Assembly: GCA_029007825.1 (NCBI GenBank)
Contig: JAQXIO010000053.1
Location: 28,156-92,155 of the forward strand
DNA from: Bacteroidales bacterium
GTDB lineage: Bacteria; Bacteroidota; Bacteroidia; Bacteroidales; JAQXIO01
Length of the DNA stretch: 64,000 nt
Reading direction: 5' to 3'
Within the stretch, counting starts at the first letter, position 1, and the number at the start of each line of letters is the position of its first letter. The position numbers were made by a program, and so were the translations under genes. Below, piece after piece: positions 3,167-36,747 of this stretch. The notes below the pieces were generated by a model that was not told the origin of the DNA, ran no database searches, and worked only from the letters and a program-made list of their open reading frames with translations.

Positions 3167-3705
3167 TATTTCTGTTTTTTGAATTTATCGAGAACAATAT
3201 CTTGCAAGTCCTTAAATTCTACCGGGGAGAGGTCGGAGCATAACTGCTGCATTCCTATCAGTAATGCATATTGCAGGATTGCCATTTTCCGCGCCTGGGT
3301 ATTATCGAGCCCGGTGTCTATATTGAGGGTTTCCAAATAATCCAACCGTATTTTATCGGCTTGTCCGACATAGCTGCGCACTATGTCGTTTGCATAACTC
3401 CATCCGCGTATGACTTCTTCGCTTTTATTGGAGGCTGAAGCTGCCTTATCTGCCAAGTGCTGCATTTTCAATTCTGCGTTTTCCTGCTTCTCTGCTTCAC
3501 GAATAAAGCTACTGGTATTTTGTTCGAGCCAATATTGCATCAGTATTTCAATATAGCCATCTATATTTTTAAAATGGTGGTAGAATGCTCCTTTGGTTAT
3601 ATTTAACGAGTCGCACAAATTATCGATCGTGATCTTAGAAAATCCATCGTTTTCCAGAATTTTCATACCGGTTATAAACCATTGTTCTCTATCTATTTTT
3701 TTCAT
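3166..3705 (-). CDS. TetR/AcrR family transcriptional regulator
   Basis: N-terminal HTH ITIDNLCDSLNITKGAFYHHFKN. Start set at MKKIDREQW (3705) rather than the ORF-track start at 3768. Confidence 0.85.
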   Translation of the reverse strand: MKKIDREQWFITGMKILENDGFSKITIDNLCDSLNITKGAFYHHFKNIDGYIEILMQYWLEQNTSSFIREAEKQENAELKMQHLADKAASASNKSEEVIRGWSYANDIVRSYVGQADKIRLDYLETLNIDTGLDNTQARKMAILQYALLIGMQQLCSDLSPVEFKDLQDIVLDKFKKQK

Positions 3706-3804
3706 ACCCAAAACATACCATATAGTATGGTATGTAAAAATAATTGTTTCATACGGATAAATAATCATTCCATCTCGTTTATTTTTCTCTATATGCCAAT
3801 TTTA

Positions 3805-4800
3805 TTAATTCCGAGATTTACGGATATTCCTGACAAAGGCCGGCACAAAGCAATAAACGAGATGCGCCCGGGACCATATGAAACATTTCTGAAAGAAGAG
3901 CATCGCTATCGTAATGAACAGGGCTGCTCCTACTGCTACCTGAAAAGGAAACCACAAAAGGGCAGAAGCCGGAATAATTACAGGTACCAATGCGACGGCT
4001 CCGGCCGGTGCAAAGAATTTGCCAGTAATTTCAAAAACGACAAAAAGAGCGATTACAAGAAAAAATATAACCACACTTTGCGGTAATCCGAAATATATGT
4101 GTCCTACCAACTGGAACAGCGTTCCAAAAGTCGCCGCTCCCACCAATAGTAAGAATACGTCGAGCGGGCGGTTCCGAAAGCCGGCTTTAGAACCAGCGAA
4201 TTCCACAAAGGTCACCACCAACGGAGGTAAAACGAAATAGGGACTGGAGGCATAAACGGAGAGTGTAGCTATCAGTGAGAGAAAAAACAGTAGGGAAAAC
4301 CATTTTTGCAGCTCTTTCCGGCGGTCGATCTGCAGAGGAATGCTATCGATTTTCTTTCGCAACCCTGCCTTCTCCATCACGATCTGACCACCTGCAATCA
4401 TCAGGGACATGACAAATACTGCAACCGGATAAACCCAGCTTTGTGTTCCCAATAAGACAGGGAGCATACAGGCTGAAATAAGGGGTATCAAGGTGGTAGC
4501 CGTAAAAAGAAGAAGCATTGCTGCCGCCATAAAAGCCAGAAGGAGGTTAAACGCCAATGGTAACGGCGAATAACGGACTATACAGATTCCGATTACTGCA
4601 GCAATGGACATCAGGATTACCATGCTTTTCCGGTCGATCGTCCAAACTTTTTTATCAACTATCCACATACCAATAGCCAAAGCTGCCATTTCAGGAAAAA
4701 CAATTTCTTTTTCTCCTATCCATTCGGCAACAGCGACCATCAGCACAATCATAGACAATGCGCAGAGGTATCTTTTATATTTCGCTATATTTTCTGACAT
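3805..4800 (-). CDS. polytopic membrane protein of unknown function, apparent internal duplication
   Basis: 331 aa, about 10 hydrophobic spans. The two halves share patterns such as IPLISACMLPVLLG and FAPAGAVALVPVII. First gene of a minus-strand operon with TetR and DUF2867. Confidence 0.6.
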   Translation of the reverse strand: MSENIAKYKRYLCALSMIVLMVAVAEWIGEKEIVFPEMAALAIGMWIVDKKVWTIDRKSMVILMSIAAVIGICIVRYSPLPLAFNLLLAFMAAAMLLLFTATTLIPLISACMLPVLLGTQSWVYPVAVFVMSLMIAGGQIVMEKAGLRKKIDSIPLQIDRRKELQKWFSLLFFLSLIATLSVYASSPYFVLPPLVVTFVEFAGSKAGFRNRPLDVFLLLVGAATFGTLFQLVGHIYFGLPQSVVIFFLVIALFVVFEITGKFFAPAGAVALVPVIIPASALLWFPFQVAVGAALFITIAMLFFQKCFIWSRAHLVYCFVPAFVRNIRKSRN

Positions 4801-13545: not shown

Positions 13546-15960
13546 TCAGAAGTCGAGGATGAGGCGGAAATTAAACTGCCGCCCGGTAAGGTAATTGGGA
13601 ACGGCATACTGGTAGTTAGAGACATCGGATATCCAGATATAGGAGTTCACGTTATTAATGTTCAGAAGGTTGAAGCAGTCTATTCCGAACCATATATTCT
13701 TAAAATAACGCAGGAATGACCAATCCATCACGCGATCTACGCCGGATGCCAAATGGTAAGATATGCCGATATCGACACGTTTATATGCAGGCGTGCGGAA
13801 ATAACCATTTTCATAGCCTTTACGGGGTGCTGCCGTCGGAAGTCCGTCCGATACGACTCCTTTTAAATTCAGGAGTACTTTCTTAAAACCGGGGAAATAG
13901 TCCTGGAAATAGAGCGAAACGGTATAACGCTGGTCGGAGGGCAACGGTACTTTGACTCCGTTTATATTCTGCTGCGTTTTCATCAATGAAAAAGAGAGCC
14001 ATGAATCGGTGCCGGGAACAAACTCTCCGAACAGTTTCATATCGAGTCCGGTTGCATAGCCGGACGCACAGTTTTCGCCGTAGTAACGGATTTTGACGTT
14101 ATTGACGGTATAGGGGTTTATCCTATTCAATATCTTATAATATGCTTCTGCCGAGAATTTAAAGTTCCGGTCTCCTACTTTAAACACATAATCTCCTCCG
14201 GCTATGAACTGGATGGATTGCTGCGATTTTATCTTATCGTTCAGCTTTGCTTCAAAGAGACCGTGTCCGACGGCTACTGTATCGAGCAATTCTTTATAGA
14301 AGGGTGCCTGATAGTACAATCCGGTCGCAAAGCGAAGCGTCAATGCTGAGAGTCCGTTAGGTACAAAACCGAGCGATGCACGGGGGCTTACGATCAGTTC
14401 TTTATTGAAATTCCAGTAAGAGGCTCTCAGACCTGCGTTGAGCGTAAACATACCGCCTTTTATACGGAATTTATAGGTATCCTGAAGATATGCGGAGGGG
14501 CGAACGGTGGAGAGTTCACTTCTTGCCTGAAGGCTGTAAATCATTTCTACATTCTCTCCGGTATGGGGTAACGAGTAGCCTGCCGAGTCGCGCATTTCCC
14601 ATTCTTTTATGCGGTCGTGTATTTTTTCAAACTGTACGGAGGCTCCCCACTGGATGTTATGCTTACGGGGACGTACAGAGCCGTAGACGCCTATATTCGC
14701 GACCGATGATTTCAGGCGGTTACGGGCATGTTCATGGTAGCCGCCGACGCCCACAACTTCCGCTTCCGATGCCTGCGAATTATCTACCAGTGCTTCTTTC
14801 AGCCAATATTCTCCCTGTATGTCGTAGGTTTCTTCTTCGTTGGAACTGAATCCGGATATCTGCAAACCGATGTCGCTTTTCGCATTAATTTTATGTTTCA
14901 GAAAGAGGGCTCCGAAATAGGTGTCAAATTTATCCCTTTCCTGTCCGTCAAAATAGACCGTAAAATCGCGTGCCATTTCACTCGTTCCGAAGGATGTCGT
15001 CCGGTCATGGGGGATAAACTTGTATTTATTGATGGTTATGTTTCCCATGAAACTGAGCTCCCAACGGGGCGTTATCGCATAGGTCATATAGGTTTGGGCA
15101 TCCAGAAAGTTCGGATAGTACTCTCCTTTCGTATCGAGTGTTCCCAACAGTGAACGACCGGTCTTATAACGTATTCCGGTAACCTGCGTGAAATTTTTCG
15201 TCGCACTCCCGACGTAGGCCGAGGCGCCCATAAGGCTACCGGATACGGAACCTTCCAGGCGTTCGGGTTTTTTGTAGGTAATATCGAGCACTGACGACAT
15301 TTTATCACCGTAGCGCGCTTCAAAGCCCCCGGATGAGAAATTTACCTCTTCTGTCATATCGGGATTGATGAAACTCAACCCTTCCTGTTGTCCGGAACGA
15401 ATCAAAAGGGGGCGATAAATTTCGACTCCGTTTACATAAATCAGGTTTTCATCGTAGTTTCCTCCCCGCACGGAATACTGGGAACTTAACTCATTATTGG
15501 AGGATACTCCCGCAAACGTTACAATCAACGATTCGATGCTTCCTCCGGAGGCATCGGGCAAGAGCTTCGTTCGTCCGACATCGAGCGTGGTCATGGTATT
15601 CGTCTGTTTCTTAAATTCGGAGACGGTTACTTCGCCGAGCGCATGGGATGCGTGTGTCATCCTGACATTCAACCGCATATCGCCCGAGAGCTGGGGGATT
15701 ATCCTTTCCGCTTTGTTGTAACCGAGGCATGAATATAATATACGAAGGGAATCCTTGGGTGTTACGTACAGCGTATAGGCTCCCTTGGCATCTGTCATCG
15801 TACCGTTTAAGGTTCCGGCAACCTGTATACCTGCCAATTCAATGGGGTTTCCGTCAGGGTCCACGACAATACCCGACACTTTATAACGCGATTGCGCATA
15901 TAGTGCGGCCTGAGAAAAGAGTATATATATGAGTAAGATATATTTTATCGGTTGCGACAT
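13546..15960 (-). CDS. TonB-dependent receptor with CarboxypepD_reg-like N-terminal domain
   Basis: Signal peptide, YKVSGIVVDPDGNPIELAGIQV (carboxypeptidase-regulatory-like), a plug region, and a long beta-barrel ending in a terminal aromatic (NFRLILDF). No SusD partner is adjacent. Confidence 0.85.
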   Translation of the reverse strand: MSQPIKYILLIYILFSQAALYAQSRYKVSGIVVDPDGNPIELAGIQVAGTLNGTMTDAKGAYTLYVTPKDSLRILYSCLGYNKAERIIPQLSGDMRLNVRMTHASHALGEVTVSEFKKQTNTMTTLDVGRTKLLPDASGGSIESLIVTFAGVSSNNELSSQYSVRGGNYDENLIYVNGVEIYRPLLIRSGQQEGLSFINPDMTEEVNFSSGGFEARYGDKMSSVLDITYKKPERLEGSVSGSLMGASAYVGSATKNFTQVTGIRYKTGRSLLGTLDTKGEYYPNFLDAQTYMTYAITPRWELSFMGNITINKYKFIPHDRTTSFGTSEMARDFTVYFDGQERDKFDTYFGALFLKHKINAKSDIGLQISGFSSNEEETYDIQGEYWLKEALVDNSQASEAEVVGVGGYHEHARNRLKSSVANIGVYGSVRPRKHNIQWGASVQFEKIHDRIKEWEMRDSAGYSLPHTGENVEMIYSLQARSELSTVRPSAYLQDTYKFRIKGGMFTLNAGLRASYWNFNKELIVSPRASLGFVPNGLSALTLRFATGLYYQAPFYKELLDTVAVGHGLFEAKLNDKIKSQQSIQFIAGGDYVFKVGDRNFKFSAEAYYKILNRINPYTVNNVKIRYYGENCASGYATGLDMKLFGEFVPGTDSWLSFSLMKTQQNINGVKVPLPSDQRYTVSLYFQDYFPGFKKVLLNLKGVVSDGLPTAAPRKGYENGYFRTPAYKRVDIGISYHLASGVDRVMDWSFLRYFKNIWFGIDCFNLLNINNVNSYIWISDVSNYQYAVPNYLTGRQFNFRLILDF

Positions 15961-16050
15961 TCGTTAGCCACTTTAGTTGTAGAAACGTGAAAATCGCGAA
16001 GAGCGTATATATTCGGGGAAGAAAAGTTTCTTTTCGTTCAAAATTCCCCC

Positions 16051-16514
16051 TATTTCTGCAGAATCCAAGAGGTGTTTCAGATAAAACCGGTAAAATAAAA
16101 TTTCTTTTACTTTATCTCTCAATGTTCACTGTCGTATGCAAAATACAGAATGCTTTCGGGAAAACTGTAAGCGTAGCTGTTTTTTTGCTTACTTTCATTA
16201 TATTTGAATAATATAGGATGTATCCCGGCAATCTTTAAGAACAAATTTTCACGATTGCGCCCGACTTTCGCTATATTTGCGTTGTTACGCGAAGATAGGA
16301 CGTGTCTCAGCAAAAAGTTCAAACAAAGTTTGACTTTCTGCGTTCGACTTTCACTATCTTTGCAAAATATAGGGTGTGCCCGGACAAAATGCAAAGTTTG
16401 CTTCGATTTTGCCTTGCGGTTTTCTCTATATCTGCAAACAAATACGCGAAAACAGGCTATACCTCAGCATAACCAAGTAAACTTGTTTCTGTTCCCGGTT
16501 TGCACTATTTTTGG
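16051..16514 (+). repeat. tandem array of degenerate promoter-like cassettes (72-83 bp units, about 155 bp dimer)
   Basis: TAnnTTTG-like boxes at 16051, 16199, 16272, 16355, 16427 and 16506. ACTTTCnn recurs before the boxes and AGGnnGTnnCnC(G/A)GCA after them. Confidence 0.7.
16227..16364 (+). repeat. dispersed repeat core, copy A
   Basis: 138 bp aligning to 36192-36328 with 15 substitutions and 1 indel, counted by eye. Confidence 0.85.
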
Positions 16515-16534
16515 AAATAATAATAAAAAAAGCG

Positions 16535-17092
16535 ATGAATAGTTTTGCCGAATTAATAAAAAAGCGCCGTAGCACACGCAAATTTACCGACCAGTTACTT
16601 ACTCCGGAAGAGGTAGAAAGTTTATTAAAAGCCGCATTAATGTCTCCGGCATCCAAACGTGCGAATCCGTGGCAGTTTGTCGTAATCGAAGACAAGGATA
16701 CTCTCCAGAAGCTTTCATTATGCAAAAAACAGAGTAGTGGTTTTATTGCCGACTGTGCTCTTGCCGTCGTTGTGATTGCCAACCCGCTCGACAGCGATGT
16801 CTGGATCGAAGACGCTTCCATTGCCTCTATTTACCTGCAATTACAGGCCGAAGAGTTAGGTCTCGGTTCGTGCTGGGTACAGGTGCGCAACCGCTTTACG
16901 GCTAACGAAGTGAGTTCGGACGAGTATGTGAAGGAGGTATTGAATATTCCTTATTATATGCAGGTTTTATCTATTATCGCAATCGGTCATAAAGATCAGG
17001 AGCGCAAACCTTTCGACGAATCGCACCTGCAATGGGAAAAGATTCATCTGGGAAGCTACAAAACGCCGGAGACACAAGAAGGAGAAAAATAA
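16535..17092 (+). CDS. nitroreductase family protein
   Basis: ELIKKRRSTRKF FMN-binding N-terminal motif. Start set at MNSFAEL (16535), which sits correctly behind the -7 box at 16506. Confidence 0.85.
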   Translation: MNSFAELIKKRRSTRKFTDQLLTPEEVESLLKAALMSPASKRANPWQFVVIEDKDTLQKLSLCKKQSSGFIADCALAVVVIANPLDSDVWIEDASIASIYLQLQAEELGLGSCWVQVRNRFTANEVSSDEYVKEVLNIPYYMQVLSIIAIGHKDQERKPFDESHLQWEKIHLGSYKTPETQEGEK

Positions 17093-17114
17093 AAGGCCCG
17101 AAATTCCTGTAAAG

Positions 17115-17897
17115 ATGAATGAGTGCTCTCTCAAAAAGATCGTATTAATCGGCGCGGGCAACCTTGCCACACGGTTGGGCATCGAATTACAAAAACGGGG
17201 ATGTGAAATCATACAGGTTTATTCGAGAACCGGACAATCTGCCCAGATGCTCGCCGATATTCTGCATGTTCCTTACACTACCGATCTGTCCCAATTGAAT
17301 GAGGATGCGGATCTTTATGTCTTTTCACTGAAAGATAACGTTCTTCCAGAAGTTATATCCAAAGTCCGATATACAGGGGGGCTATGGGTTCACACGGCTG
17401 GAAGTGTGGATATCGAGGTATTCAACGGATATACTCCACGTTACGGTGTTTTCTATCCGCTTCAATCGTTCAGCAAGTCTCGGGTTTTCGATTTTTCAAA
17501 AGTGGCAATTTTTACAGAGGCAAACAGTGAAACGGATGCTTCGGCTTTGATTCAACTGGGCTCGCTGTTGTCGAGCCGTGTCGTTCCGATGTCATCTGAA
17601 AAAAGAAGGTATCTTCATTTATCAGCCGTATTTGCCTGCAATTTCACGAATCATCTTTATACCATTGCTTTCAAGTTATTAGAAGAGCACGGCATAGACG
17701 GTACGGTACTGTTGCCTCTGACCGAAGAGACAGAGGCGAAGATTCACGAGATGCATCCGTATGACGCCCAAACAGGACCGGCGGTGCGCTTCGATACAAA
17801 TGTAATCGCAAAACATTTAGAGTTGCTGAACGATCCGGAGCTTCAGTCTGTTTACGAGCTTATCAGCAATCATATACATAAAACGCATACAAAATGA
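17115..17897 (+). CDS. Rossmann-like / DUF2520 domain protein
   Basis: IVLIGAGNLATRLG dinucleotide-binding loop. The C-terminal half resembles DUF2520. Overlaps kdsC by 4 nt. Confidence 0.65.
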   Translation: MNECSLKKIVLIGAGNLATRLGIELQKRGCEIIQVYSRTGQSAQMLADILHVPYTTDLSQLNEDADLYVFSLKDNVLPEVISKVRYTGGLWVHTAGSVDIEVFNGYTPRYGVFYPLQSFSKSRVFDFSKVAIFTEANSETDASALIQLGSLLSSRVVPMSSEKRRYLHLSAVFACNFTNHLYTIAFKLLEEHGIDGTVLLPLTEETEAKIHEMHPYDAQTGPAVRFDTNVIAKHLELLNDPELQSVYELISNHIHKTHTK

Positions 17898-27268: not shown

Positions 27269-27269
27269 G

Positions 27270-27343
27270 AGCCTCTTGTCGGATTCGAACCAACGACCCC
27301 GAGATTACAAATCACGTGCTCTGGCCAACTGAGCTAAAGAGGC
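27270..27343 (-). tRNA. tRNA-Thr (anticodon UGU)
   Basis: 74-nt cloverleaf on the minus strand: acceptor GCCTCTT/AAGAGGC, D arm GCTC-AGTTGGCCA-GAGC, anticodon loop TTTGTAA, T arm GTTGG-TTCGAAT-CCGAC. The anticodon stem has one T-T mismatch. Confidence 0.93.
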
Positions 27344-35228: not shown

Positions 35229-36155
35229 ATGATTAACAGAGTTCTTATCCGAATCAAAGTTTTGCAAATCCTATTTGCATGCAACCAAAACCACAGCAAG
35301 GATCTCGCTGCCATCGAAAATGAGTTGTTAACCAGTCTTAAGAAGGCGTATGATTTATACTTTTATCTTCTCAAACTTATGGTGGATATAACGGAATGGC
35401 AAAAACAGCGCCTGGATATGGCAAAAAACAAATATCTGCCTACCGAGGAGGAGTTAAACCCCAACCTTAAATTGGCCCAGAATCAATTCATTGCCCAACT
35501 ATCACAAAATAAAACTTTTTTAGCTTATACCCAAGAGAATACTATCTCATGGGATAATAACCGGGAAACGATCAAGTACCTGCGTTCCGCAATTTTACAT
35601 TCCGACACTTACAAGGAATACATAGAGTCGGACGATAACAGTTATGAGGCCGATAAAGAGTTTTGGCGTAAAGTCCTAAAGAATGTCATATGTCAGGACG
35701 AAACGTTTATCGAGGAACTTGAAAATATGTGTATCTACTGGAACGACGACCTCGATATTATCGAAACGTTCATACTGAAAAGCATCCGGCGCTTTGAAGC
35801 CGAAAAGGGCGACGATCAGGAATTGCTTCCGATGTTCAAAAGTGAAGAGGACAAGGATTTTGCCATACAGCTTTTAAGGTTTACCTTATTAAATGAAGAC
35901 AAATATAACGAGGAAATAAACAAATATCTCAAGAACTGGGATATGGAACGTATCGCGGATATGGATATGGTTATTCTCCGGACGGCAATCGCGGAGATTC
36001 TCAATTTCCCGACTATTCCTATCAATGTAACAATGAACGAGTATATCGAAATTGCTAAAGTTTACAGTACGCCGAAAAGCGGTACTTTTATTAACGGTAT
36101 ATTAGATGCAATGGTAAAAAATCTGAAAGCCGAAAATAAGTTGTTGAAGAAATAA
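35229..36155 (+). CDS. nusB: transcription antitermination factor NusB (long Bacteroidetes form)
   Basis: The C-terminal NusB core carries ILRTAIAEILNF and NEYIEIAKVYSTPKSGTFINGILD. It is preceded by an N-terminal extension. Confidence 0.85.
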   Translation: MINRVLIRIKVLQILFACNQNHSKDLAAIENELLTSLKKAYDLYFYLLKLMVDITEWQKQRLDMAKNKYLPTEEELNPNLKLAQNQFIAQLSQNKTFLAYTQENTISWDNNRETIKYLRSAILHSDTYKEYIESDDNSYEADKEFWRKVLKNVICQDETFIEELENMCIYWNDDLDIIETFILKSIRRFEAEKGDDQELLPMFKSEEDKDFAIQLLRFTLLNEDKYNEEINKYLKNWDMERIADMDMVILRTAIAEILNFPTIPINVTMNEYIEIAKVYSTPKSGTFINGILDAMVKNLKAENKLLKK

Positions 36156-36191
36156 CTTATTTCTATATTTGTAGAATATAAAAGGTGTCTC

Positions 36192-36328
36192 GGCAATCTT
36201 TAAGAACAAGTTCTCACGATTGAGCTCGACTTTGACTATATTTGTGCTGTCACGCGAAGATAGGATGCGTCTCAGCAAAAAGTTCAAACAAGTTTGACTT
36301 TCTGCACTCGACTTTCATTATATTTGCA
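36192..36328 (+). repeat. dispersed repeat core, copy B
   Basis: 137 bp aligning to 16227-16364 at about 88% identity by eye. It carries TATATTTG boxes at 36237 and 36319, and another lies just upstream at 36164. Confidence 0.85.
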
Positions 36329-36447
36329 GAAGATGAATGAAAACAGGATACGCCCCGGCATAATCACATAAATTTGTTACTGCGTAAGGCGTGTAGTATT
36401 TTTATCGTATAACAATGTATTACAAACAATTATAAACTGTTTATCTT

Positions 36448-36747
36448 ATGATTTTACAAGCAGCAGCAGGAATGGATCAGCAATGGTCATCCATACTTAT
36501 GATGGTAGCAATTTTCGCTATCTTTTATTTCTTCATGATCCGTCCGCAACAAAAGCGTCAGAAAGAGATCAAAAAATTCCGCGAAGCCCTGAAAGTAGGC
36601 GATAAAGTAGTTACTGCAGGTGGTATCTACGGAAAAATCAAAGAGATCAACGACAGTACATTACTTGTCGAGATCGCAGAAAATGTACGTATTAAAGTAG
36701 ACAAGGCTTCGGTATTCGCATCGACAGAAGATTCATTGCAAAAATAA
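36448..36747 (+). CDS. yajC: preprotein translocase subunit YajC
   Basis: Single TM followed by FFMIRPQQKRQKE and GDKVVTAGGIYGKI. Confidence 0.9.
   Translation: MILQAAAGMDQQWSSILMMVAIFAIFYFFMIRPQQKRQKEIKKFREALKVGDKVVTAGGIYGKIKEINDSTLLVEIAENVRIKVDKASVFASTEDSLQK

Follow-up and report, generated by a model that had tools for sequence, protein, structure and literature searches.

The subject of this report is a 574-bp intergenic gap, and the family of repeats that fills it, on a 64,000-nt stretch (hereafter the window) of contig JAQXIO010000053.1 from the Bacteroidales bacterium assembly GCA_029007825.1. The gap, at positions 15961-16534, separates a minus-strand open reading frame (ORF) for a TonB-dependent receptor (13546-15960, with Plug and CarboxypepD_reg domains) from the ATG of a nitroreductase gene (16535-17092, plus strand, Pfam PF00881). 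This gene is the one served by the array described below and stands first in the order nitroreductase-DUF2520-HAD-Maf. Its protein is 100% identical to one from an NCBI metagenome-assembled genome labeled "Bacteroidales bacterium", and look-ups by exact sequence of this protein and of the DUF2520 protein gave no record. A preliminary description of the gap had reported six promoter-like boxes, and these do lie at 16051, 16199, 16272, 16355, 16427, and 16506, the last five being 73, 83, 72, and 79 bp apart. Its account of tandem cassettes, each with a promoter consensus of the Bacteroidetes type, also holds. Repeat finding recovered a 25-nt promoter-like module in five copies and a 41-nt pair, 156 bp apart, with 78% identity. 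The pattern ACTTTCNNTATNTTTG, with at most one mismatch allowed, has five matches in the window against 0.28 expected, a number that none of 100 shuffles reached; two of these matches sit 20 kb away, between nusB and yajC. Tandem Repeats Finder reported nothing for the region, which does not count against a repeat because the units here are only 59-73% identical to one another. A conserved AGG word, described earlier as following four of the boxes, is found at 16215, 16297, and 16454, with a more diverged copy at 16371. The two-unit period that had been proposed stands in part: alternate units are locally more alike (0.73 and 0.67 identity) than neighbors (0.59-0.64), but with a shuffled maximum of 0.61 the signal is weak, and it is absent as a rule of the family.

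The repeat unit, for which the name rod is coined here, is an imperfect palindrome of 63-83 nt (about 75 bp), preceded by a linker that either is 3 nt long or forms an additional small hairpin, whose loop is often TTCG. In the nitroreductase gap all features lie on the plus strand. The box at 16051-16058, decayed to TATTTCTG, is probably the ancestral native -7 box of the nitroreductase promoter, as it aligns with the sole box (TATTTTTG or TAATTTTG) of the corresponding gap in relatives, both lying at an equal distance after a conserved GCGTATAT block. The stretch 16059-16190 may be a decayed part of the array; it tentatively includes at least one degenerate rod at about 16141-16204 (AATACAGAATGC..TTTCGGGAAAA..GCTTACTTTC), which in local alignment against shuffles scores a z of about 3 to the family consensus and of 4.8 to unit U1b, and which the nhmmer family profile does not detect. 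Repeat finding and pattern matching then place a family promoter module, ACTTTCATTATATTTG, at 16191-16206, with its -7 box at 16199-16206. Unit U1a (16207-16279, nhmmer E=1.6e-8) consists of a 3-nt linker and a rod at 16210-16277, with 5′ arm AATATAGGATGTATCCCGGCA, a variable hairpin, and a 3′ arm that is a promoter with box 16272-16279; it folds as a rod and is 81% identical to U2a at the second locus. Unit U1b (16280-16362, E=2.5e-15) has a long linker with its own small hairpin (CGTTGTTACGCG) and a rod at 16292-16360 with box 16355-16362; its rod fold has an energy of -20.4 kcal/mol, and it is 88% identical to U2b. Unit U1c (16363-16434, E=1e-9) combines a short linker with a rod at 16366-16432 and the box TATATCTG at 16427-16434, and its GCC, on a reading of the sequence, pairs with the downstream GGT and not with the upstream GAC. 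In unit U1d (16435-16513, E=7.7e-5) a long linker precedes a rod at 16449-16511, whose 3′ arm carries the gene-proximal -7 box TATTTTTG at 16506-16513; AAAACAG/CTATTTT and ACC/GGT pair with this downstream arm. The 16506 box lies 21 nt before the ATG and has the type and register of the native box of the relatives.

A second array of the same family lies at 36164-36404, between nusB (35229-36155) and yajC (36448-36747). Here the native -7 box of yajC (TATATTTG, 36164-36171, plus strand, recognized from the empty sites in relatives) stands directly past the nusB stop codon, and the array begins at the next base. Its three units, located by pattern matches and nhmmer on the plus strand of 36172-36404, occupy 36172-36244, 36245-36326, and 36327-36404, and the last of them closes with the decayed box TATTTTTA at 36397-36404, leaving 43 nt to the yajC ATG at 36448. 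The first unit resembles U1a of the nitroreductase gap, and the block 36156-36334 is 87% identical (155/179) to 16188-16370 (183 bp), so that a two-unit block is common to both window loci.

Both window arrays are insertions relative to the closest relatives, directly 3′ of a native -7 box. The nearest named relatives of the window are Tannerellaceae. In relatives whose nitroreductase is 77-84% identical and whose gene order is kept, the intergenic region measures 126 bp, compared with 574 bp in the window, and holds a single box, TATTTTTG, 26-29 nt before the ATG; more distant syntenic gaps are 125-145 bp long and contain no units. Relative to this single box, about 455 bp have been added after the window box at 16051. 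In relatives 76-77% identical in NusB, the nusB stop is followed by ACTTATTCC, TATCTTTG, 45 nt, and the ATG, whereas the window shows CTTATTTC, TATATTTG, three units, TATTTTTA, 43 nt, and the ATG; the nusB-yajC gap is thus 58-61 bp in these relatives and about 290 bp in the window. Both junctions fall directly after the native TTTG, neither of the two empty/filled comparisons shows any duplication besides the box that belongs to the unit, and the last box of both arrays is a new -7 box whose distance to the ATG is close to the native one. Turnover of units is also seen when close relatives are compared: one with 95% identity in NusB shares the window's native box and second unit but differs in its first unit. 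The contig of this relative (L148, 3008-3130) ends in the middle of the second repeat unit, which suggests that the repeat family breaks short-read assemblies. Elsewhere in the family, the box at the left end of an array often comes with an ordinary spacer that is not of the family type, and immediately after it stand a linker and a rod whose C, A, or T type matches. The type of the native first box equals that of the 5′ arm of the first rod in five of five coded cases and in about 14 of 15 judged by eye.

The comparison with relatives also bears on coding. The preliminary description had called the gap free of ORFs, which is not strictly so, as mechanical ORFs of 74, 91, and 112 amino acids are listed inside it; the longest, with a TTG start, runs from 16204 to 16542 across the whole array and could be picked up by gene callers. 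On sequence grounds it is very unlikely that the array stretch is coding, as had been argued before, because the whole stretch is absent from the closest relatives. A small peptide, with 27 codons per 81-nt unit from the ATG of GGATGCG to the TAG of the following AAGATAGG, was considered and rejected: units range in length from 72 to 83 nt, many carry GGAGGCG and lack the ATG, and substitutions in the middle of the unit are compensatory.

Across the family the layout is TGCGCTCGACTTTCRC-TATMTTTG, linker, AAKATAGGATGCGTCTCGGCA, variable hairpin, and the next TGCGCTCGACTTTCRC-TATMTTTG. The rod itself reads AAKATAG-GATGC-GNC-TC-GGCA, then the variable hairpin, then TGC(G)C-TC-GN′C-TTTCRC-TATMTTTG, so its 5′ arm, the AGG word, is an imperfect complement of the promoter that forms its 3′ arm. 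The two arms covary. The K of AAKATAG changes with the M of TATMTT (G-C 33, U-A 24, A-U 4), the N of GCG-N-CTC with the N′ of CG-N′-CTTTC (U-A 47, G-C 7, C-G 5), and the pairs at the base of the variable hairpin likewise change together. In a set of 67 distinct rods, pairing holds in 96.8% of cells, compared with 35-55% in slid controls, and 82 cells carry double changes, compared with 21.6 in shuffles, with none of 500 shuffles reaching the observed value. The AGG word had been described as a motif of its own upstream box. Where neighboring promoters differ, however, it pairs with the next promoter downstream in 17 of 21 cases (three more fit both) and with the upstream one alone in a single case, and in the outer helix both discordant cases favor the downstream partner. 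These discordant cases indicate that the evolutionary unit is the word plus the next promoter downstream, which is the rod; they disfavor a local hairpin of the AGG word with the box just upstream, a possible alternative fold. In the window the module with the CGACTTTC spacer never stands alone.

The pairing cannot be assigned to an RNA read from one strand, since the non-Watson-Crick pairs are not biased toward either strand (11 are G.U and 14 A.C) and folding is slightly better for the minus strand of the rods, by a mean of 2.5 kcal/mol (53 against 14 of the 67 rods); selection for a one-strand RNA structure therefore finds no support. A CUUG loop bonus replacing CAAG may be a source of the minus-strand stability. 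The promoter consensus is found on the gene-ward strand only: complementing the 5′ arm gives TATCTTAT or TATCTTCG and never TAnnTTTG. All long-linker units place a G (CGAA), never an A, opposite the third T of TTTG, as at 16289-16292 and 36254-36257 in the window, giving a G.T wobble. This invariant wobble may reflect avoidance of an antisense promoter, as a perfect complement would make TAnnTTTG on the opposite strand.

The 3′ arm of the rod is a promoter of the sigma-ABfr type by consensus, with a -7 TAnnTTTG, which belongs to the published sigma-ABfr consensus (PMC7366714), and often a -33 TTTG. The -7 element sits in the outer helix, and the -33 TTTG lies inside the 3′ arm of the hairpin. 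TAnnTTTG is present in three of the five main window boxes (16199, 16272, and 16355) and in the terminal box at 16506; the box at 16427 reads TATATCTG. Across 53 aligned units, each column of TAT.TTTG in the second, unselected promoter is either invariant or conserved to at least 90%. Of 145 distinct promoters, 65 have a -33 TTTG with a spacer of 17-23 nt, the lengths peaking sharply at 19-20 nt (49 promoters), and the remaining promoters have near-variants. In 55 of 67 arrays a same-strand ORF of at least 100 amino acids, started by ATG, begins within 400 nt of the last box. The median distance from last box to ATG is 36 nt, with 35 arrays within 60 nt, and this matches the 5′ untranslated region (UTR) lengths of Bacteroides, for which a median of 32 nt has been reported (PMC7366714). 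The downstream genes are unrelated housekeeping genes, including nadA, trpS, recQ, proS, dnaN, ruvB, metG, ileS, nitroreductase, and aspartate aminotransferase. Of the genes on the upstream side of arrays, 26 are co-directional and 31 divergent, and some arrays, including the nusB-yajC array of the window, start only 2-50 nt past the stop codon of a co-directional gene.

A search for the cassette consensus elsewhere, which the preliminary description had proposed, recovered the second window array and, with the strict pattern of box plus AGG word, 59 further loci among 185,579 species-representative genomes, all of them in Bacteroidales. These loci come from Alistipes, Muribaculaceae, Barnesiella, Dysgonomonas, Proteiniphilum, Parabacteroides, Prevotellaceae, Bacteroides, and uncultured lineages, and a single metagenome-assembled genome may hold up to seven or eight of them; Phocaeicola massiliensis is also a carrier of the family, and Dysgonomonas sp. 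25 and Parabacteroides sp. PF5-6 are further cultured carriers. An nhmmer profile built from the units gives 148 units in 67 arrays. Arrays comprise one to four full units, often with a terminal partial unit that is the promoter alone, and within an array all units lie on the same strand, head to tail. Linkers vary, arrays being all short-linker, all long-linker, or mixed. Arrays at the same gene are kept across related species for cysH (L017, L059) and ileS (L027, L034, L039). One divergent intergenic region (L011) contains two back-to-back arrays, at about 3657-3835 on the minus strand and 4422-4512 on the plus strand, each facing its own gene, one of which encodes a recQ-family helicase. 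Two records from human feces labeled "UNVERIFIED: Bacteriophage sp." (L152 and L153; MT835643.1 and MT836672.1) carry the repeat, in L153 upstream of a gene read by eye as uvrA-like; these scaffolds are probably bacterial DNA in a virome. Rfam gave no match at E<=10 for window positions 15000-17500 and only chance matches to miRNA hairpins for six canonical loci, and a full-text search of the available literature with the family consensus strings returned no paper. The earlier remark that the gap matches no described element thus agrees with the Rfam and literature searches, and the repeat looks like an undescribed family.

Taken together, the gap is probably a tandem array of a dispersed Bacteroidales repeat that is non-autonomous, targets promoters, regenerates them, and grows by tandem addition. 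A design specific to the nitroreductase gene is not supported; what is found is a dispersed family before unrelated housekeeping genes, inserted relative to the closest relatives, and it looks like a repeat family that copies promoters and not like a control region built for this gene. We infer that the family spreads by copying units of linker plus rod behind TAnnTTTG boxes. With the target box at the end of every unit, each insertion would make a new target; the head-to-tail growth of arrays would follow because each unit ends in the same box and seeds the next. The 3′ arm would restore the displaced promoter, and only one orientation would be tolerated or survive because the unit regenerates what it displaces. 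The gene downstream would come to have a proximal promoter and several upstream ones, whose transcripts would carry rod hairpins in their 5′ leaders. One candidate for the copying agent is a single-strand DNA transposase that recognizes hairpins and acts in trans. Another, which fits the data equally well, is template switching or gene conversion with the box as microhomology. A more specific version of this scheme is doubtful, though it merits mention: the rod may be a guide-directed mobile element whose 5′ arm (AAKATAG, or CGAAKATAG in long-linker units) pairs with the box CTATMTT(TG) on single-stranded DNA and directs insertion directly 3′ of it, so that each unit is the next target and the natural target is a primary-sigma promoter element of the host, compensated by the replacement promoter.

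Several points weigh against a mobile, promoter-regenerating repeat. Promoter activity of the units is predicted from the consensus, with the -33 TTTG at canonical spacing in 65 of 145. No transposase or mobilizing gene was found, in what was a weak test (tblastn over 0.9 Mb at E<0.3, with IS200-like and RAYT/YafM-like queries). No insertion polymorphism was seen within one species, the differences being between relatives only. A scan of viral contigs gave 0 matches and so no evident vector for horizontal spread. Finally, across bacterial families with strongly diverged proteins the core motifs hardly vary, and a function selected in the host, such as an RNA or a protein-binding site, would account for this no worse than selfish DNA would.

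Four other explanations deserve consideration, of which several could hold at once, and each of which explains fewer observations than does a mobile promoter-regenerating repeat. The arrays may be selected stacks of promoters, in which tandem sigma-ABfr promoters and stabilizing 5′ hairpin leaders raise or buffer expression and copy number serves as an expression dial. The -7 consensus in the units, the orientation of arrays toward the gene at promoter distance, their persistence at cysH and ileS in related species, and a core conserved across families all speak for this view. It is nonetheless unlikely, as the downstream genes have nothing in common, the closest relatives serve the same genes with a single promoter in a gap of 58-126 bp, and both the complementarity between 5′ arm and promoter and the conserved spacer CGACTTTC are left unexplained. 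The units could instead be tandem small-RNA genes, each transcribed from the promoter of the preceding unit into a hairpin RNA of about 70 nt, with the conserved GGAUGCGUCUCGGCA as seed or protein-binding site. Were transcription to start a few nucleotides past the box, the resulting RNA would indeed have the 5′ arm at its beginning and fold up as the complete rod; the core motif shows strong conservation, whereas in the apical stem only the pairing is kept, and the long-linker G.T wobble in CGAA/TTTG is invariant and pairs on the plus strand only. Against these points, a standard plus-strand scan of the window region finds no terminator-like site after the rods, which weakens the case for discrete RNAs of 60-80 nt, and the 3′ flank TTTCRCTA is too poor in T. 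The absence of strand bias (11 G.U, 14 A.C), the slightly better folding of the minus strand, and the absence of an Rfam family count against it as well, and the usual truncation of the last unit to just its promoter fits a promoter role better. Small RNAs are accordingly quite improbable as the explanation.

That the rods act as insulators, each hairpin halting read-through from upstream genes or units and the 3′ arm restarting transcription, is less probable again. About half of the arrays do follow a co-directional gene, some only 2-50 nt past its stop codon, and the GC-rich stem with an A-rich 5′ side and a T-rich 3′ side resembles what such a function would call for. However, the rods fail standard criteria for intrinsic terminators, the other half of the arrays lie in divergent regions with no read-through to stop, and a single hairpin would suffice, leaving arrays of two to five unexplained. 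Least credible of all is a landing pad, a multi-site target for a regulator or nucleoid protein that recognizes the conserved core. The GGATGCGTCTCGGCA and TGCGCTCGACTTTC cores are nearly invariant, as that would lead one to expect, but Watson-Crick covariation at three or more positions, together with an apical stem that varies freely while keeping its pairing, points to an intramolecular hairpin and not to a duplex site, and the target genes have no common function.

Among known systems, the nearest in their workings are REP/REPIN sequences and promoter-bearing MITEs (miniature inverted-repeat transposable elements) such as the Correia elements; primary-sigma -7 box targeting, in-register promoter regeneration, and tandem growth are distinctive of the rods. 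In Neisseria, the Correia elements (CREE/NEMIS) are palindromic repeats, small and non-autonomous, that lie by genes, carry outward promoters, and form RNA hairpins in leaders. MITEs as a class are characterized by terminal inverted repeats, a target-site duplication, and a related autonomous insertion sequence (IS). In the rods the termini AAKATAG and CTATMTT are inverted repeats, and the two empty/filled comparisons show no duplication beyond the unit's own box. Correia elements have no sequence relation to the rods, and they differ in their 26-bp terminal inverted repeats, a TA target duplication, and single insertion; nor are they known to target existing promoters or rebuild them in register, as the rods would under the mobile-repeat interpretation. 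Transposition of the IS200/IS605 type uses hairpin ends in single strands and inserts 3′ of a short target with no target duplication. By analogy, rods may follow similar logic, with strand-specific insertion directly 3′ of the box TTTG, no target duplication, hairpin ends, and a 5′ arm complementary to the target. IS200/IS605 elements have two subterminal hairpins, whereas the whole rod is one palindrome, and no TnpA was found here in the weak test described above.

REP, BIME, and REPIN sequences, mobilized by RAYT tyrosine transposases and including the GTAG- and CGTC-tagged REP superfamilies, are 20-40 nt long (PMC3733652, PMC3116915). REP (repetitive extragenic palindromic) sequences resemble the rods as abundant, non-coding, clustered intergenic imperfect palindromes with compensatory changes that are presumably mobilized in trans. 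They differ in length, rods being 63-83 nt, and in arrangement, since REP sequences mostly form head-to-head or tail-to-tail dimers, or alternate in orientation within BIMEs, and rods are all head to tail. Rods have no unpaired GTAG tag, and the GTC of the CGTC in the word is paired in helix P2. In rods, furthermore, one arm is a complete promoter and insertion is tied to -7 boxes and oriented to the gene. CGTC-tagged REP sequences gave no match to the rods, and the same tblastn survey, a weak test over 0.9 Mb, found no RAYT gene. Putative mobile promoters, in which the same promoter-containing upstream sequence precedes unrelated genes of a genome, have been surveyed under the heading of promoter propagation in prokaryotes (PMC3488235); the families in that survey were defined by similarity only, with no tandem arrays, hairpins, secondary structure, or target site.

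Tandem small-RNA arrays such as NsiR1 of Nostoc and LhrC1-4 of Listeria consist, like the rods, of direct repeats each with its own promoter, but their units end in terminators and the rods, by the standard scan, do not. Type II-C CRISPR repeats with embedded TAnnTTTG promoters (PMC10309648) are likewise direct repeats that contain a promoter each. CRISPR arrays have near-identical repeats, unique spacers, and cas genes, whereas rods are 59-73% identical and their variable part is itself palindromic; no cas genes were found among the seven neighboring genes scanned, and the earlier judgment that the gap is not a CRISPR array is upheld by its diverged repeats and lack of spacers. BrickBuilt, a MITE of Porphyromonas gingivalis, has IS-like terminal inverted repeats as well as a trapped 23-nt minisatellite (PMC4596501). 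It shares with the rods its place between Bacteroidales genes, promoter activity, which for the rods is predicted, and internal tandem repeats, and it shows no match to them in sequence or architecture. The small RNAs FopS, reportedly deposited in Rfam (PMC11697453), and GibS were also considered and discarded, neither matching the rods, consistent with the absence of Rfam covariance-model matches at E<=10 in 15000-17500.

Two other features of the window lie outside the arrays. About 70 bp next to the start codon of the TonB receptor, at 15961-16030 (TTTAGTTGTAGAAACGTGAAAAT...AAGAGCGTATAT), are conserved at the DNA level in relatives whose proteins are only 77-84% identical, more loosely so in orthologous loci from the human gut, and have no Rfam match. 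On sequence grounds this segment is probably the receptor's own promoter or a regulatory site. The sole tRNA of the window, tRNA-Thr (TGT) at 27269-27343 on the minus strand, is unrelated to the array.

If the interpretation as a mobile promoter repeat is correct, many Bacteroidales genomes, among them those of cultured Phocaeicola, Parabacteroides, and Dysgonomonas, hold a repeat that rewrites the promoter regions of core housekeeping genes, namely those for tRNA synthetases and dnaN, ruvB, recQ, and yajC. Annotation of promoters and 5′ UTRs would be affected, with two to six stacked start sites per gene and long hairpin leaders, and metagenome assembly is affected as well, as in the relative whose contig ends inside an array. 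The 35-nt 3′ arm, by consensus a compact and portable sigma-ABfr promoter, could serve Bacteroides engineering. The family would also supply a concrete mechanism for the promoter propagation of genome surveys (PMC3488235), and its landing exactly behind the -7 box, with in-register repair of the promoter, would be a clear case of an element evolving harmlessness.

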